A DNA stretch of 11,070 bases from an uncultured Nitrososphaerota archaeon (lineage in GTDB: Archaea; Asgardarchaeota; Njordarchaeia; Njordarchaeales; Njordarchaeaceae): assembly GCA_964518475.1 (NCBI GenBank), contig CAZFGR010000039.1, positions 1 to 11,070 on the forward strand, given 5' to 3'. Positions within the stretch are counted from its first letter, which is position 1. Each line of letters begins with the position of its first letter. Positions 2,352 to 11,070 of the stretch are shown here, one piece after another. The translations under genes and the position numbers were made by a program. A model generated the notes under the pieces. That model had not been told where the DNA came from. It saw nothing but the letters and a program-made list of their open reading frames with translations, and ran no database searches.

Positions 2352-2543
2352 ATGCCCTACAACTACATTATAACTTTCAAAATCAATCGCGATTTACTAG
2401 AACATCTCGATAAACTAGTAAAACAAGGCTACTACAATAGCAGAAGCGAAGCAATCAGAGAAGCAATCAAACAGCTAATAATAATACATAACAACTTCCG
2501 CGAACAACTAAGAAGAGCATGGGGTGAGGAGGAAGATGGCTAG
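2352..2543 (+). CDS. Ribbon-helix-helix (CopG/MetJ/NikR-type) regulator
   Basis: IITFKINRDLLEHLDKLVKQGYYNSRSEAIREAIKQL matches the archaeal CopG RHH pattern; GAGGTGA RBS. Confidence 0.9.
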   Translation: MPYNYIITFKINRDLLEHLDKLVKQGYYNSRSEAIREAIKQLIIIHNNFREQLRRAWGEEEDG

Positions 2544-3108
2544 GAAGAAAGACAAAATAAAATTACCAGATAAACTCTTTACCATTGTGGAAGTGGAGCT
2601 AGAGATTCAGCGCATTGCTGGCGGTGAACCTGGATTAAGTATAAATCAATTCGGAGAGCCAATAGAAACGCGTTTCCAGAACAACATATTTAGGAGAAAG
2701 GAAAATGGCACAAGGATCTTGTTTGAAGAGAAACACGTGAAGGGGCTTTTGAAGGAGGTAGTTAGAATCTTAGGACTGTCAACCAAAGAAAAAGGCATAC
2801 TTTTCAAAATTCGCCATAGCCTGGCAATGGAACCATCCGAAATATTAATTCCTCCTGGCACAGAGGTTTACGGTCGCCCAATACCGGTTCTCTTAGGGAA
2901 CCGGGTATCAATCACATTCACAGAAGTCATCGAGAAACCGCTAAGAGTAAAATTCAGATTAAAAATCCCGAACGGACCAGACGGACCAGTAGTAAGCCCT
3001 GAGTTACTACGTAAATTATTCGAAGTGGGGCAAACTGTTGGCATTGGGGCTAAGAGATCGTTGGGCTATGGCAAATATAAGGTGGTGAAATTCGAAGTCA
3101 TAACTTAA
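2536..3108 (+). CDS. Stand-alone RAMP-superfamily protein, Cas7/Csm3-like (candidate Vipr-type effector), 190 aa
   Basis: N-terminal strand plus IAGG, helix HVKGLLKEVV (cf. Csm3/Cmr4 SLKGxLR), TEVIE strand and C-terminal G-rich loop GIGAKRSLGYGKY typical of group-7 RAMPs; GGAGG RBS before ATG 2536 (start revised from 2524). Confidence 0.85.
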   Translation: MARKKDKIKLPDKLFTIVEVELEIQRIAGGEPGLSINQFGEPIETRFQNNIFRRKENGTRILFEEKHVKGLLKEVVRILGLSTKEKGILFKIRHSLAMEPSEILIPPGTEVYGRPIPVLLGNRVSITFTEVIEKPLRVKFRLKIPNGPDGPVVSPELLRKLFEVGQTVGIGAKRSLGYGKYKVVKFEVIT

Positions 3109-3109
3109 A

Positions 3110-3137
3110 CCTTCTTTCCTTTTTTTTATTTTTTATT
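3110..3137 (+). terminator. Oligo-T terminator of early operon
   Basis: CCTTCTTTCCTTTTTTTTATTTTTTATT right after the RAMP stop codon. Confidence 0.7.
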
Positions 3138-3140
3138 AAA

Positions 3141-3409
3141 CCAATACTGCCCTTTACCTAGCATTACAAAACAGTACTGAACTCTCCTCTCCTCATCGCA
3201 TTACATAACTAGACATAACATTACTTAACAAAACGATCCAGCAGCGCTAAACAAAACACTACTTTACAAAACGCCTCACCCCCATTAGCAAACCTAACCG
3301 AGACGTTCCATAACTCTGCAATCCTACAGCGCTAAACATAACGAGACAAGACGAAACAATCCTGACCCGGCAACACATAACAGTATTTTACAAGCCGGGC
3401 CAGTACTAT
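3141..3409. ncRNA. Pentamer-periodic repeat array, putative guide-RNA (vrRNA-like) array partnered with the RAMP
   Basis: 52 pentamers in 6 phase blocks (3141-3195, 3198-3242, 3246-3285, 3288-3327, 3331-3370, 3370-3409). C at position 2 in 51/52; position 1 A30/C14/G7/T1; position 3 A25/T17/G7/C3; positions 4-5 variable. Example: GCATT ACATA ACTAG ACATA ACATT ACTTA ACAAA ACGAT CCAGC. The periodicity is directly visible; RNA function is inferred. Confidence 0.75.
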
Positions 3410-3521
3410 CTACTCAAGTTAAAATTCACAATAAGGCCCGGAAAGGCCGAGCAATGAAGACATCTTCTGAGCAATGAAGCCCCGGAGCAAATAATTAGTA
3501 AGTTTTTCCTGAGGTGGTGTA

Positions 3522-3600: not shown

Positions 3601-3990
3601 ATGCCCATCAAAACCAGAATTGTTTTTCTCCCGGATTTTAAGATTGATATGCTCCCCTTCAGTTTTTCCACAAAAAAATTCACGATTTACATCGAGAAAC
3701 TAGCACCGATGGAATTCGAAGAAGTAATCAAAAATAATGTAATCGCGGCAAAGCGAGGCTACCAGGAACTAGAGATCCTATGCTTTATAAAACATAAGGA
3801 GACACGGGAACTCCTGAACACAATAATAAAAAACACCGGCTGGAAAATAAAACTCAGCACAGAAACATACAAAGTCCCCGAAAACCCAACAACAGACATC
3901 ATATTAATAGTAAAAGCAGAAAAAGTAGATGAACACGACTACGTCTTTCACACTTATATCGTATACGTGGAGACAGGGTGGAGGGAGTAG
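3601..3990 (+). CDS. Divergent DUF1874 (STIV B116 / AcrIII-1 ring nuclease family)-like protein
   Basis: By-eye match to the remembered family pattern: FLPDFKIDML ~ YLxNAFSxNML, IYIEKLAPMEF ~ VxIxKIxxxEF, CFIKHKETRELLN ~ SIGHxSTxxLxN (His kept); NR and RLxEG motifs not evident; GGTGAT RBS. Confidence 0.55.
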   Translation: MPIKTRIVFLPDFKIDMLPFSFSTKKFTIYIEKLAPMEFEEVIKNNVIAAKRGYQELEILCFIKHKETRELLNTIIKNTGWKIKLSTETYKVPENPTTDIILIVKAEKVDEHDYVFHTYIVYVETGWRE

Positions 3991-5145: not shown

Positions 5146-6657
5146 ATGACAGTTTTAGTAAAACTGCCAAGACGCCTTCTCTTCGTGGCCCCAATCCTAG
5201 TCCTACTCATCATACTGCCTCTGGCCCAGGTCCAAGCCCAAGCACCAGTAGTCATAAGGGAGGAAGATGCTGTAATACCATACCTTGAAGCAACAATGGA
5301 TATTTTTATTCCATCGACTTCTGCGAAAATACTCTCAGGTTTTCATACACTTACGACTGGCGACTTTATAGTTATACCAAGAGTAAAACTTGAACTTGGA
5401 ATAATTCCCAGTGGAGATAAAGCAATAGCTTTATTCCGCATCTCGCAGTTCTACTCCAAGGACGGGGTAATAATTAGGTCAACAAACGTCGAGGAATTCA
5501 AAACGGATGCTAAAAAAGAATATTCAAAAGGAATACTGGCAGAGCTACACCCAGTAAGTACGCTAGCTGAATTCCAAGCAAATGCAACGTGGTATACACT
5601 CTCAAGTCCGGTAGAGTCCGATGGAGAGTACTACATATTATATTTCAAGGCTAGTTCTAGAATAACAGTAACTGAAGTTAAGATAGACCCTGACACGAAT
5701 CATTCAAACGGGAACGAAATAGTTCTCTGGAACAAACCGGCAACAGTAGAAGAAAACGAGGAATTCTGGCTCCCACTGCCATACACAACAATAGCAGCAA
5801 TATATGTGGTTACGAAAGGGTCTTATATCCCAGTTACGAAGTTATACTACAACGAACTATCAGTAAGAGACCACAGATTCTTGGAGGAGCAGAACTTAAC
5901 GGTTAACGATACAGAGAGCGAGATAATAAGCGAGGAAACAACGGAGGAAGCGAAAACAGAAAACATCTGGATAGGAGTTGATAGCTTACATGATTACATC
6001 ATGGAAGCGCTGAAGAATACATTCGGAGAGGTTGAGACATATAACTTAACATCATTCAACATTGAGCTAAAAGTAGGAAAGAATATAAAATACGAGACTG
6101 CGGGAATCATCAAATATTCTTGGACCTCACTAGCGATCCTACCGGATCTCTCAGGATGCTTTAGGAAGGTAAGAGTAACGGTAGCGGGATACCTAGATAC
6201 TGTAAGAATGTATCTGAGCAGAACAGCAAGTGAACTAAAGAAGACAGCCACGAGCACCGCGAACCTCGTAGTAATTGGGGCGACAAACGTAGCAAGAAAA
6301 GCATCAGAGACATACAGCCGCATGGCTAAAATGACAACCTCAACGGTTCAGAACTTGGCAGAGAGCATCAAAAACGCAGGGCTAACAGTAAAATCTCTCG
6401 CTGAATCAACGGTAAATAATGTAGGAAAAGCATTAGCAAACGCCAAGAAAACAATTGTTGATGCTGGAGCAAAACTAGTGCATGCCGTTAAAGCAGCACC
6501 AGGAGCAGTTCTCAACTTCGGCAAACTCGCATACGGAGCAGTCACAGGATTCATTAAGAAATTCAAAACGTACATTGTGATTGGTATAATAATCGCAGTA
6601 ATAGCAGTAATCGCGTTACTAAGCTACGGCCTAACAGTAACAAGGAGGAGATTCTAG
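5146..6657 (+). CDS. Type I membrane protein, probable virion envelope/spike or surface protein
   Basis: Signal peptide (..LPLAQVQAQA), beta-rich ectodomain with N-x-S/T sites, long A/T/K-rich amphipathic helical stem, C-terminal TM (YIVIGIIIAVIAVIALLSYGL) and RRRF tail; AGGTGA RBS. Confidence 0.75.
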   Translation: MTVLVKLPRRLLFVAPILVLLIILPLAQVQAQAPVVIREEDAVIPYLEATMDIFIPSTSAKILSGFHTLTTGDFIVIPRVKLELGIIPSGDKAIALFRISQFYSKDGVIIRSTNVEEFKTDAKKEYSKGILAELHPVSTLAEFQANATWYTLSSPVESDGEYYILYFKASSRITVTEVKIDPDTNHSNGNEIVLWNKPATVEENEEFWLPLPYTTIAAIYVVTKGSYIPVTKLYYNELSVRDHRFLEEQNLTVNDTESEIISEETTEEAKTENIWIGVDSLHDYIMEALKNTFGEVETYNLTSFNIELKVGKNIKYETAGIIKYSWTSLAILPDLSGCFRKVRVTVAGYLDTVRMYLSRTASELKKTATSTANLVVIGATNVARKASETYSRMAKMTTSTVQNLAESIKNAGLTVKSLAESTVNNVGKALANAKKTIVDAGAKLVHAVKAAPGAVLNFGKLAYGAVTGFIKKFKTYIVIGIIIAVIAVIALLSYGLTVTRRRF

Positions 6658-7215: not shown

Positions 7216-8049
7216 ATGAAACTACACATACTCCCAATACTAGTCATAACACTCCTAGCCCTGACACCAGCAACAGTACAAGCGAAAACCAATATCCCTA
7301 AGTGGAGCGATATCCTTAAGTGGCTCAAAGAAGGAGACTGGTTCTACTATGAAGTAAATGTAACGTACCATAACTTAGCAACTAATTTAACCGAAAAAAT
7401 TCACAGACAATACAACTTCACCATTAAAGAAATCAGAAATACCACTATTAAGATAGTAAGATATCTAAAACAATTTGATATTGAAACTGGTAGAGGCGAA
7501 GAAGATACTGCGGAACTACTCGTTAATCTTTCTGATCTGAAGCAAGTGGGATTGCTATTTCCATTCTTTACTCCTGTTAATGTTACGCATGGAAATACAC
7601 CATACAAAATTCCAGAGGGAGAATGGGTTAAGATAAACCAGACAGTAATCATAAGGCATATTGAGCTCAAGCTTAAAGAGGGCAAATTAATCATAGAATG
7701 CTCACTAAATGAATCTATCATTCTCAGTTGGTTCGAAGAATGGATTATTCTCGGTAATTACAGTATATATATCGAAATATCTATCCTAAAATTAGGTTTA
7801 GTCACATATTTTGAGATGAACATCACGAGAAACTTCATAAGGAATACTAATGTAAACTCTACAGGATATCTCATAATGAGTGCATCTAATGGTACTTCTC
7901 ATGAGATTGGCATATTAAAAGATACTAATATTGAGTTAACTAAAGAAGAAACCACTGAAGTCACTAAATCATCTGTAAACTACTTGCTTATTATTCCAAT
8001 TCTAATCGCTATACCAGTTAGTGCTCTCTTGGTAAAACGTAAAAAATAA
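7216..8049 (+). CDS. Secreted, C-terminally anchored surface glycoprotein
   Basis: Signal peptide (..ATVQA/K), LKEGDWFYYEV start, many N-x-S/T sequons, T/E linker, TM and KRKK tail; GGGTGA RBS. Confidence 0.85.
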   Translation: MKLHILPILVITLLALTPATVQAKTNIPKWSDILKWLKEGDWFYYEVNVTYHNLATNLTEKIHRQYNFTIKEIRNTTIKIVRYLKQFDIETGRGEEDTAELLVNLSDLKQVGLLFPFFTPVNVTHGNTPYKIPEGEWVKINQTVIIRHIELKLKEGKLIIECSLNESIILSWFEEWIILGNYSIYIEISILKLGLVTYFEMNITRNFIRNTNVNSTGYLIMSASNGTSHEIGILKDTNIELTKEETTEVTKSSVNYLLIIPILIAIPVSALLVKRKK

Positions 8050-8059
8050 GGGTTGCGGT

Positions 8060-11000
8060 ATGAGATCAAAACTCATTCTTGCTCTTTTCCTAATTTTTTT
8101 AGTTGCTAATTCTACGCTGAGTGTTTTGTTTAAGCTTCCTGGTACAGAAAAGTCTCTCGTTTCCAATTCTAGCTCTAATGAAGAAGATAACAATGAAGTG
8201 AAAGTTTCTAGTTCTAACAATGATTTCGCCTTAACGTTGAAGTTTGAGCCTCCACCATCATTCCCTGATGATGGTTATTTCACATACGATACTTATAACC
8301 CAAATACAGAAGCAAGTCTAGTGACATCTTTTGATACAAGCGGATATATTGGAGACACTATTGCAGCAGACGATGCATACTACATTGGTCACATAGATGC
8401 TAACGAGTATGCCTTCTCAGTATCTTCAGACGATAAAATCGATGAGGGATACTGGTATCTTTATTTTAGAGCATCAATACCAGCATCATACCTTGGAACT
8501 ATTAGTGTGAAATACAAAGTAAGGATGACTATAGAGGGCGGAGATGCCCTGCAATTCATCTATACTGATACTTTCGATGCCACAGCAGATTACATAATCA
8601 ACGGACATATTTACTTAGAAATTAAAGCAAAATTCTATGACAAAGCATCATATTGGGAAGGGGAATACTACGATGATTTCGAAATAGATACTTTCGTGTA
8701 TCTGATGAAATGGGATGGGACAAAAGTTCTAGTTGCCAGCCATGATAACGATCCCTATACAATGGGATCTGTTGGCAGTACAGAGGGTACTGATGACTGC
8801 TACTTAATGGTTGACCAAGTCAAGCTCACCACAACTTACTACTACAGCAATGTCATTCCAGAACACACAACAACAGACAACTATGTCCTCCACAAAGTAA
8901 CCTTCGACGTATCCTATGCAGGGACAAAAGTAACATTCCTCAATCTCCCAAGAAACTGGGTATTCTATAATGCCTCACCAGCAATAGACTGGAATGATAC
9001 AGAGAAGAGCTTCTATGCAATAATAGAGGGAACATACACACTATACTTCATCTCATATAACACTTGGAACTATCCACAATACGAGTTATCAAGGGTAGCT
9101 TTCTTCAACAGCAGAGGAGAATTTTTGAACTTCGACAGCTTCCACACATACATTGCTGAATCACCAACGAGGCTGATAAGATACGCACCAGATATCAATG
9201 ATCCCGATTTGGTTGCATGGTTCAGATTCAACGAGGGAGAAGGAAGCGTAACATATGACTGGAAAAATAATCTGCAGGGAATAATTCATGGAGCAACATG
9301 GGTAACAGGATATATTGGGAAAGCACTGAGTTTCGATGGAACAGATGATTATGTAGAAGCAGATGATGTAACACAATACTTTGTAGAGACCGACTTTACA
9401 GTTGAAGCTTGGATTAAATGCACAGATATTTCAGGGACTGATACAATAGTAGGTAGGTATGATTCTTCAGGTAATAATCTATGGGTTTTATGCGTTGATG
9501 GTACTGGTCAAATATACTTCCATCACGGCCCAACCACTACAAATAGACTTTTTAATGCACGTGTTACCAATGAGCAATGGTATCATATAGTCTTCGAGAG
9601 GGAAGGAACAATTTGGAAATTATTCCTGAACGGAAGATTTATTGGATCATATGATCTATCGATACCTGATGAATCGAGCAATGATAGATTCTCAATAGGT
9701 CAGGATTGGGATGGATCAAGTACATCTGATTTCTTCGATGGTTTAATCGACGAAGTCCGCATCTACAAAAGAGCCTTAACCCCCGAGGAAATCTGGTGGC
9801 ATTATTGTATCGTGCTCTATTTTGATGGTTACAGAGATATATTAGGTAGAGAGCCCGATACTGATACTCGTATTAGAATTGTACAGGGAGTATTTGGTTA
9901 TGCCTCAGAATTCGACTATTCGAAGTTAAAGTATGAAGGTGATGATGCTCTAAGGTCATTAGTCGAGATGACTTGTATTGCTATGTTCTACAGGTACGGT
10001 TATAGAAAGACAGGAGCTCACGGTGATGATTATTTCGTTTTATTCGAAAAGACAAGGGAGACATCTAGCGGTACTGAAATAGTTTTCCTAGAAAGTCTTG
10101 GTTCAGTAATTCTGGAGTTCCGCACAGAAGGTTATTGGCACTCAGCATACACTTTCTTCGACATAGAGCATCGTGATAAGGTTTGGACTTTTGTTGCTGG
10201 GTCTATTAGCTATGATGGCCTCATGACAGTATACTATACAAATAAATATGAGGAATCATCAAAAACTGAAGCAACATCTAGAAAAGATTATGCCATGCCA
10301 ACAAGAGATGCTGGATCAGCATTTATTGGTTATACGCATGGGTTTAATAGATACGCATGGGGTTTAATTGATGAGCTTATAGTTCTAAGAGAACCTCTTT
10401 CGCTTGATATGATGAAAAAGCTGTACCATATTGCAGAAAAATACATCGGTGGCTATTACACTGACGAATCTTTCAGGGCAACGTGGGATATAGAACAAGA
10501 TTCACCAGAGGATGGATATGGATTTGCGGAGGATTTTTCAGATATTAGTGAGTGGGATTGGTGGGCGTATCAAAACGCTTATTCTTCACGGAGTGCAACT
10601 ACAGATGGTGATATTCTTACGTTATATGCTGATTTTCCAGCAGATTCATCTTACGGCTTCGTGACTTATGGAGTTGATTTTACTGATTTCGATTTAGCTA
10701 ATTATCCGTTCATTGAAGTACGGTGGAAAGGAGAGACAAATGCCTCAACTTACTTGAGAATTTTCGCTAACATAACAGATGGAGGATCAAACACTTATAA
10801 CTTGTTAATTGTATCGCACACATCTACTTTCGATTGGGAGATTGTTAGAGTTAATTTATACGAATTAGCAAAAGCAAAACAATCATCTTGGTCAGCATGG
10901 TATTTAAGTGGCATTTATTTCGACATCAACGATAATCCAGATGATGTAGCACAATACGGCAAAATTTACGTCGACTGGATACGGATCTATCGGATTGAGG

Positions 11001-11070
11001 GATACAAGCATTATGACTACTATGGGCAAGACTCATCTTACTGGGCTACATCGATTGGTGGAATACTACA
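8060..11070 (+). CDS. Large secreted LamG/concanavalin-A-like jelly-roll protein (putative receptor-binding adhesin), 3'-truncated by window
   Basis: Absent from the ORF track because it has no stop in the window; open for ~1003 codons. Signal peptide MRSKLILALFLIFLVA; LamG at ~9200-9800 (LVAWFRFNEGEG..GKALSFDGTDDYV..FTVEAWIK..WYHIV..FDGLIDEVRIYKRALTPEEI); a second degenerate LamG at ~9810-10430 (WTFVAG..GLIDELIVLREPLS); a CBM-like domain ending YVDWIRIY. Confidence 0.9.
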   Translation, partial: MRSKLILALFLIFLVANSTLSVLFKLPGTEKSLVSNSSSNEEDNNEVKVSSSNNDFALTLKFEPPPSFPDDGYFTYDTYNPNTEASLVTSFDTSGYIGDTIAADDAYYIGHIDANEYAFSVSSDDKIDEGYWYLYFRASIPASYLGTISVKYKVRMTIEGGDALQFIYTDTFDATADYIINGHIYLEIKAKFYDKASYWEGEYYDDFEIDTFVYLMKWDGTKVLVASHDNDPYTMGSVGSTEGTDDCYLMVDQVKLTTTYYYSNVIPEHTTTDNYVLHKVTFDVSYAGTKVTFLNLPRNWVFYNASPAIDWNDTEKSFYAIIEGTYTLYFISYNTWNYPQYELSRVAFFNSRGEFLNFDSFHTYIAESPTRLIRYAPDINDPDLVAWFRFNEGEGSVTYDWKNNLQGIIHGATWVTGYIGKALSFDGTDDYVEADDVTQYFVETDFTVEAWIKCTDISGTDTIVGRYDSSGNNLWVLCVDGTGQIYFHHGPTTTNRLFNARVTNEQWYHIVFEREGTIWKLFLNGRFIGSYDLSIPDESSNDRFSIGQDWDGSSTSDFFDGLIDEVRIYKRALTPEEIWWHYCIVLYFDGYRDILGREPDTDTRIRIVQGVFGYASEFDYSKLKYEGDDALRSLVEMTCIAMFYRYGYRKTGAHGDDYFVLFEKTRETSSGTEIVFLESLGSVILEFRTEGYWHSAYTFFDIEHRDKVWTFVAGSISYDGLMTVYYTNKYEESSKTEATSRKDYAMPTRDAGSAFIGYTHGFNRYAWGLIDELIVLREPLSLDMMKKLYHIAEKYIGGYYTDESFRATWDIEQDSPEDGYGFAEDFSDISEWDWWAYQNAYSSRSATTDGDILTLYADFPADSSYGFVTYGVDFTDFDLANYPFIEVRWKGETNASTYLRIFANITDGGSNTYNLLIVSHTSTFDWEIVRVNLYELAKAKQSSWSAWYLSGIYFDINDNPDDVAQYGKIYVDWIRIYRIEGYKHYDYYGQDSSYWATSIGGIL

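Follow-up and report, generated by a model that had tools for sequence, protein, structure and literature searches.

What is encoded by a non-coding tract of five-nucleotide repeats that adjoins a solitary gene of the RAMP superfamily, and do the abrupt changes of register within such a tract divide it into functional units? The question is raised by an archaeal contig of 11,070 nt (C39), which was analysed over its complete length (hereafter the window) and forms part of a 2.33-Mb metagenome-assembled genome (MAG). A preliminary description of this DNA had proposed that the tract is a multiplexed guide array, punctuated into about six guide-sized units by phase slips and a repeated junction, and that it grows by duplication of whole units.

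VIPR, which is related to CRISPR and silences the DNA of viruses and plasmids under RNA guidance, joined the known RNA-guided systems very recently, being first described in preprints of 2026 (10.64898/2026.04.26.720920). It combines a solitary ancestral RAMP protein (Vipr) with vrRNAs composed of YNNGG pentamers, in which GGY is fixed and NN is variable; it occurs mostly on phages and archaeal viruses, in seven types, and the alternative repeats NNNGG, YNNNG, and NNNNG are also on record (10.64898/2026.04.26.720920). Those vrRNAs that have been characterised are separate molecules about 100 nt long, with 9-16 repeats plus a 40-nt tail in the type II systems among them, and the VIPR of SUSP1 has been shown by experiment to be RNA-based (10.64898/2026.04.26.720920). 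The legend of fig. S18 in the same preprint further describes 'staggered arrays with overlapping vrRNAs', processed individual vrRNAs whose ends abut with a 1-nt overlap. Cryo-EM places one protomer on each repeat, with two neighbours sharing each fixed trinucleotide; the NN bases pair with double-stranded DNA, every third target base being skipped, and residues D177 and W178 of SUSP1 Vipr read G1 and G2 (10.64898/2026.04.26.720927). Non-canonical motifs (WGT/NN, TGH/NN, GAC/NN, and CAC/NN) are reported among 21 clusters in the accessible part of a later preprint, which contains no discussion of register slips or unit punctuation (10.64898/2026.10.21.760802). The grammar of VIPR arrays is known mainly from a few phage examples.

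Here we describe a locus that is probably (at roughly 70%, in our estimate) a VIPR-type system, in which a solitary Cas7-like RAMP is accompanied by a staggered array without tails, made up of about six units of vrRNA size. VIPR is a kind of system already known, and the locus leaves the picture of what VIPR is unchanged; what it adds is an archaeal clade with GC-marked slips of several nucleotides, an array probably antisense to its protein gene, and arrays that reach about 26 units.

A solitary RAMP gene and its adjoining pentamer array

The protein gene of the locus (2524-3108, + strand) is present in a single copy in the MAG and encodes a 194-aa single-domain, Cas7-like RAMP, designated Vipr-like from its AlphaFold model, structure matches, and profile. 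The model (pLDDT 78) comprises a beta-alpha-beta core, a beta-hairpin, and a G-loop, and the C-terminus of the protein carries a glycine-rich loop (GIGAKRSLGYGKY). Its best matches in the PDB are the Csm3/Cas7 subunits that form the backbone of complexes of types III and VII (E about 1e-4, TM 0.45-0.54), and viral 'RAMP superfamily' proteins are matched in BFVD; at the level of sequence there are weak matches only, to the glycine-rich loops of Cas6, Cmr6, and Csm4. A profile search gathered a family of 132 representatives at E<1e-3, mostly 190-250 aa in length. When a 94-sequence profile of this family was compared with SUSP1 Vipr, a C-terminal segment of 44 aa (strand-helix-G-loop) was aligned with an hhalign probability of 61% and an E of 8e-5, and the likeness is confined to these 44 residues; a shallow profile of five close homologues gave no match to SUSP1 Vipr (probability 0.3%). 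The protein has the attributes of a Vipr: it is a small RAMP of one RRM domain, equipped with glycine-rich loop and thumb, and its gene lies outside any cas operon. Apart from this lone RAMP, Pfam searches found no cas genes in the window, no Rfam family matched the window at E<=1, and no tRNAs were found in it.

Downstream of the gene, a T-rich spacer read from the sequence (3109-3142, + strand) leads to the array; it appears to serve as an AT-rich leader, as an oligo-T terminator of the RAMP gene, or as both. The spacer is near-identical in the closely related locus L003, and L016 and L018 have a comparable T-rich block ahead of their arrays; L005 and L006 do not.

The array itself (3143-3410) is non-coding, with no open reading frame of 60 aa or more, and is G-poor on the + strand. 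Its period is well defined: over 3161-3409, self-identity at lag 5 is 0.47, as against 0.287 +/- 0.029 for dinucleotide shuffles, none of 2000 of which reached this value, and self-identity at lag 10 is likewise raised. A scan of the whole 2.33-Mb MAG identified the array as its only period-5 tract. Read on the + strand, the pentamer is W-N-N-(A>C>G)-C, corresponding to W-G-(T>G>C)-N-N on the minus strand, so that three positions of each repeat are constrained and two are variable (ACW/NN on +, WGT/NN on -). The column frequencies are 0.88 for the ladder C, 0.81 for a preceding A/C, and 0.82 for a following W, the other two columns being nearly free; on the minus strand the ladder G is preceded by W and followed by T (0.56), G (0.25), or C (0.13). 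The array is thus an adjacent non-coding tract with a fixed trinucleotide and a variable dinucleotide, as in VIPR, although it does not conform to the canonical GGY/NN (YNNGG) repeat.

The association of gene and array is conserved. Each of the close homologues (56-84% protein identity) has a single period-5 tract, which follows the RAMP gene directly and measures about 150 nt in L003, L004, and L014, 1.25 kb in L005, >0.9 kb in L006, and >1 kb in L018. Six more distant homologous loci also have adjoining period-5 arrays. Of the distant members whose contigs were retrieved, L010 and the phage records L031-L035 have arrays that are G-rich on the RAMP gene's own strand, and L012 and L013 carry an NNNGG array on the strand opposite the gene; L011 has no period-5 array in its contig. 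No further close relatives were found in IMG/VR or in GTDB genomes, and searches of JGI metagenomes returned known loci only. The last ~60 nt of L018 (about 1880-1943) contain an adapter-like string (CTGTCTCTTATACACATCT...) and were excluded from the array analysis as an assembly artefact.

Some of these relatives have genes of their own around the array. In L016 (1134-1391) and L018 (498-764), an ORF of 85-88 aa starts at the RAMP stop codon, ahead of both T-rich block and array. This candidate for an accessory (vap-like) gene has no counterpart in the window. In L012, a called gene of 183 aa (1536-2087) overlaps the period-5 array almost wholly and is probably an artefact of gene calling across a vrRNA array.

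Register slips and the units they delimit

Segmentation by a five-phase Viterbi model divided the region into blocks at 3130-3193, 3194-3241 (48 nt), 3242-3285 (44 nt), 3286-3324 (39 nt), 3325-3367 (43 nt), and 3368-3410 (43 nt). Within the array proper these amount to six abutting, guide-sized blocks of 39-51 nt, offset in register and listed here under the minus strand, the probable guide strand. Block A (3143-3193) has about 10 pentamers in one phase, among them an in-phase GC pentamer that ends at 3162 and may start a unit of seven pentamers. Unit B (3194-3241), delimited by the segmentation and by comparison with L003, has nine pentamers plus a junction, and its 27-nt core (3204-3230) is identical in the L003 array. 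Unit C (3242-3285; eight pentamers) and unit E (3325-3367; eight pentamers) both start, on the + strand, with AGCGC TAAAC, and unit E has 15 nt (3344-3358) in common with L003. They are separated by unit D (3286-3324; seven pentamers) and followed by unit F (3368-3410), whose seven pentamers, two of them degenerate, lie largely within a GC hairpin recognised by folding. Unit size in the window is accordingly 7-9 pentamers.

These boundaries agree closely with those of the preliminary description, which had put slips at 3196, 3243, 3286, 3328, and 3370; the Viterbi slips fall at about 3193/4, 3241/2, 3285/6, 3324/5, and 3367/8, in no case more than 3 nt away, and the GC pentamers noted at 3161, 3198, 3246, 3288, 3331, and 3370 are all present. 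The further suggestion that units end in CC pentamers applies to the window, where 4 of 5 internal blocks do so, and fails as a rule of the family (25/80 units compared with 130/543 pentamers elsewhere, p 0.17).

The slips are regularly spaced. The coefficient of variation of the lengths of internal blocks is 0.08 in the window, 0.29 in L005 (24 blocks), and 0.38 in L006 (26 blocks), whereas arrays simulated under the same column model as the real ones with randomly placed slips gave values of 0.66-0.79, and in each of the three cases all 200 simulations were less regular. Units have a median size of 8.5-9 pentamers, and certain blocks depart far from this length (5-113 nt). The slips are also marked: in 64 of 80 units the pentamer that comes first after the slip has GC at its end, as opposed to 80 of 543 internal pentamers (odds ratio 23, p 7e-32), and in a position matrix of 87 junctions a G precedes the first in-phase ladder C after the slip in 76%. 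The junctions were drawn from six arrays that have almost no alignable sequence in common. At a slip the insertion is as a rule either the 3-nt xGC or a piece of 6-8 nt with GC at its end, and the units stand 2-8 nt apart; the net slip is most often +3 (42 cases), followed by +2 (29), +1 (14), and +4 (11).

The phage homologues L010, L031, and L032 are divided in a comparable manner, by uniform slips of +1 (an extra G), and their units comprise 5-9 pentamers, with runs of exactly 26 nt as one example. In L031 and L032 it is the pentamer just before the slip that is GC, in 21 of 25 units compared with 60 of 119 pentamers elsewhere (p 0.0019). Had the slips been placed at random across homologous arrays, the earlier proposal of punctuation would have had to be given up; that is not what was found, since the spacing is regular, the junction grammar and its GC mark are common to the family, and the phage homologues are cut likewise. 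The phase slips are therefore supported as genuine unit boundaries.

One unit of the gut-phage array L031 (3489-3534) alternates GCAGA with GAAYC pentamers and thereby acquires a sub-period of 10 nt. It may represent a low-complexity guide or a recent internal duplication.

Probable guide array, guide strand, and competing readings

Among published systems, the locus most resembles the staggered VIPR arrays. It has in common with them a solitary small RAMP on a viral or mobile element, an adjoining non-coding array of 5-nt period with three constrained and two variable positions, the lack of a CRISPR array or cas operon, and guide-sized tail-less units that abut with an offset of register. This layout, as set out in the legend of fig. 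S18 (10.64898/2026.04.26.720920), supports the proposal that the tract is a multiplexed guide array. A structured, conserved 3' tail of the type II kind follows none of the repeat tracts, the units being only a few nucleotides apart and the sole hairpin (3362-3403) unconserved, which fits the tail-less staggered class. Because the locus matches both the published staggered arrays and the WGT/NN motif, the inference that its units are separate guides or filament segments is well supported. The two differ in that the slips of the window family are of 2-4 nt (mostly +3 and +2) and marked by GC, whereas the legend gives a 1-nt overlap; an offset of 1 nt between successive vrRNAs is not the pattern of the window family, and is seen in the phage loci L010, L031, and L032. 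The window's G ladder moreover lies antisense to the RAMP gene, and its host is archaeal.

Other comparisons are looser. With its minus strand read as WGT/NN, the array belongs to the WGT/NN (YNNNG) class of non-canonical VIPR motifs and stands beside a Vipr-like fold. The type II VIPRs of SUSP1 and P. fulva resemble it in having a RAMP with G-loop and thumb, a pentamer grammar, and several guides per locus. The SUSP1 locus, which we re-found at 27.6-29.2 kb of NC_028808, differs in its canonical GGY/NN motif, its 10-12 repeats with a 40-nt pseudoknot tail per vrRNA, and an array on the strand of the gene; the window's array is tail-less, departs from the canonical motif, and lies on the opposite strand, with protein likeness detectable at the C-terminus only. 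Its units of 7-9 pentamers likewise differ from the 9-16 repeats and 40-nt tail of characterised type II systems. The Cas7 backbones of class 1 CRISPR systems have in common with it a RAMP filament on a guide RNA, a thumb that periodically disrupts pairing, and several guides; the window, however, is without a 25-40-nt repeat, spacers, Cas6, Cas1, or Cas2, and its period is 5 rather than 6. A CRISPR array was ruled out, no direct repeats of 25-40 nt alternating with unique spacers having been found in the window and no cas genes besides the RAMP.

As to which strand serves as guide, the sequence favours the minus strand, which bears the G ladder and is antisense to the RAMP gene, and we regard this as probable. 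It is possible, though doubtful, that the guide of the same VIPR-type system is instead the + strand with its C ladder (ACW/NN), co-transcribed with the RAMP gene or transcribed from just downstream of it; in that case units would open with xGC-xxxGC and extend 5' to 3' in the direction of 3410, and the scaffold read by this RAMP lineage would be A/C instead of G-based. Such a guide would be co-oriented with its gene, as in SUSP1, L010, and L031-L035, and would suit the conserved T-rich/AT-rich block upstream of the array in the window, L003, L016, and L018, the beginning of the L005 and L006 arrays right at the stop codon, and the T5-T6 runs that follow the arrays on the + strand in the window, L003, and L005, there being no oligo-T terminator on the minus strand. 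An alignment of the G-loops by eye places A and K at the positions of SUSP1 D177 and W178, and the C-rich ladder of L012 and L013 is also found on the coding strand. In favour of the minus strand are the G ladder kept by all motifs in the accessible part of the first VIPR preprint (10.64898/2026.04.26.720920) and the identical WGT/NN motif on the gene's own strand in L010, inside an operon. In addition, the GC-before-slip polarity of the co-oriented phage arrays L031 and L032 fits the window family only on the minus strand, four T5-T6 runs (archaeal terminator signals) occur inside arrays on the + strand and none on the minus strand, and the window's hairpin gains a G-U pair and 8 kcal/mol on the minus strand. 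A wider proposal, that the GC pentamer with its 2-4-nt slip is a dedicated 'stop/start' signal setting filament length, and/or that the + strand is a guide with an A/C-based scaffold, strikes us as rather unlikely. Were the 'stop/start' reading true, it would mean tail-less, nuclease-free multiplexing with 6 to >25 guides per transcript; were the + strand reading true, a Vipr lineage would have switched from a G-based to an A/C-based scaffold; and either would constitute a new rule of VIPR array grammar, one absent from the accessible text of the published preprint.

Three further readings depart from a set of separately processed guides on an RNA. That the array acts as one long uncut guide RNA, its slips being hinges or spacers between filament segments in a 'beads on a string' arrangement, is in our judgement unlikely; it would account for the lack of any nuclease, ribozyme, or Cas6-like processing element in the window (Rfam, Pfam) and for tail-less units with junctions of only 2-8 nt, but the published staggered arrays, according to the legend of fig. 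S18, give individual processed vrRNAs with abutting ends (10.64898/2026.04.26.720920), characterised vrRNAs are discrete molecules of about 100 nt, and an intact 1.25-kb array such as that of L005, while possible, would be unprecedented. Neutral decay by indels of a once-perfect pentamer repeat, which would make the slips functionless, would explain their variable size and the irregular length of some blocks; it is extremely improbable, and we reject it, given a spacing too regular for random slips, the specific GC mark at junctions, and the recurrence of the same grammar in arrays without alignable common sequence. Equally remote is a role at the level of DNA, as iterons, a replication origin, or bent DNA, in place of an RNA gene. 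The position of the array on a mobile element between regulatory genes would suit such a role, but it is strictly linked to a gene for an RNA-binding RAMP across distant lineages and missing from a sibling element that is without the RAMP gene, its 5-bp period is out of phase with the DNA helical repeat, and the homologous SUSP1 system is RNA-based by experiment (10.64898/2026.04.26.720920); the iteron reading was rejected on these grounds.

Under the favoured interpretation as a VIPR-type array of separate units, the mechanism can be sketched by analogy with SUSP1 VIPR, from which we infer RNA expression, the choice of strand, filament breaks, processing, and DNA targeting. One RAMP protomer would sit on each pentamer and coat each in-register run of 7-9 pentamers, neighbouring protomers jointly clamping the fixed trinucleotide and leaving the two variable bases exposed, so that double-stranded DNA would be read as a gapped code. 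A GC-marked slip of 2-4 nt would break this 5-nt lattice; since neighbouring protomers would need an in-register lattice to clamp their common trinucleotide, the filament could presumably not cross the slip, and because the lattice is broken there, each unit would form its own filament or separate guide segment. The short exposed junction would then be a place of trimming or processing, and with its 14-18 specified bases a unit would cover 21-27 bp of DNA.

Competing mobile elements would be the probable targets. Guides were decoded as NN or NNN reads in two registers with skips of 0-3; against both DNA strands of the array-masked 2.33-Mb MAG, the decoded guides of the window gave matches no better than shuffled guides, and 61 units from six arrays did no better than shuffled ones against the MAG and related contigs, a comparison of low power with 14-18 specified bases per unit.

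In the archaeal clade, even arrays without common sequence keep their punctuation by register slips, and a marked junction (a GC pentamer plus 2-4 nt) can replace a single-base offset; the clade also indicates that an array can lie antisense to its protein gene, the assignment of the guide strand being probable. Rules of this kind are useful for the automatic annotation of vrRNA units and for the design of compact multiplexed guide arrays.

Junction duplication and the surrounding mobile element

The repeated junction of the preliminary description consists of two copies, to which no strand is assigned, at 3236-3257 (the B/C boundary) and 3321-3342 (the D/E boundary), 85 nt apart. Their reported identity of 19/22 was confirmed (18/22 in the frame of the present analysis), and they are the most alike of 4278 junction pairs from six arrays, pairs between arrays matching at a mean of 8.2 +/- 2.2 and a maximum of 16 of the 22 positions. 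The AGCGCT palindrome that had been remarked at their centre is indeed present in the window's duplicated junction and occurs in no other array. Growth of the array by whole-unit duplication does not follow from this pair: only ~22-24 nt around one junction are duplicated, and at an offset of 85 nt the likeness ends there. Because it ends after ~24 nt, we interpret the duplicated junction as a local duplication or conversion and not as a duplicated unit. Comparison with L003, whose protein is 84% identical, likewise revealed no clean case of the gain or loss of a whole unit, the common parts being the 27-nt core of unit B and the 15 nt of unit E, in the same order. The variable content of the units turns over quickly between related elements.

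A stem of CCCGGC/GCCGGG that had been noticed around the last unit is present in the window, where on the minus strand it extends to 10 pairs (3362-3371/3394-3403), and is absent from L003 and L005, making it specific to the window; neither L003 nor L005 has a conserved distal hairpin or tail. The stem region folds at -14.6 kcal/mol on the + strand (z -3.2) and at -22.8 kcal/mol on the minus strand (z -5.2).

The locus resides on an archaeal mobile element: Pfam identifies a serine resolvase with a MerR domain, a tyrosine integrase, and RHH regulators on the contig, a setting that accords with the occurrence of VIPR on viruses, proviruses, and plasmids and is reinforced by a sibling element on another contig of the same MAG (C52). 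The MAG is assigned to the archaea by its ribosomal protein L31e; a search for SSU rRNA gave no match. Immediately upstream of the RAMP gene is a gene for an RHH (CopG-type) DNA-binding protein (2352-2543, + strand; Pfam RHH_1, E 3e-9), the end of which overlaps the start of the RAMP gene. A homologue of this RHH gene is present in the C52 sibling, where both the RAMP gene and the array are absent; the RHH gene belongs to the element backbone and may have an accessory or regulatory role. Since the sibling runs straight from its RHH gene into a conserved flank without either, the RAMP gene and the array behave as one cassette.

The flank lies outside the array (3416-3490, no strand assigned) and was recognised by its match on C52, of which 35 nt are 100% identical and which spans ~70 nt by eye, at about 1465-1535 of C52 (L002). 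It contains a GGCC-CGGAAA-GGCC hairpin and two GAGCAATGAAG repeats 20 nt apart; folding of 3416-3490 was not significant. The flank marks the insertion/deletion boundary of the VIPR cassette and is probably a regulatory or terminator region of the backbone, where it may serve as an RHH operator or a terminator.

Several other genes deserve mention. A 129-aa ORF that adjoins the array (3601-3990, + strand) has no Pfam match at E<=0.1. The record of the Aquificae Conch Spring virus has an annotated DUF1874 gene two genes upstream of its Vipr homologue. Further along the window are three large genes for secreted or membrane proteins, all on the + strand, at 5146-6657 (503 aa), 7216-8049 (277 aa), and 8060-11068, the last of which encodes >1003 aa and runs off the contig; in L003 the same place is taken by a gene for a 1790-aa Laminin_G_3 protein. 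The three large downstream genes may encode surface or virion proteins of the element.
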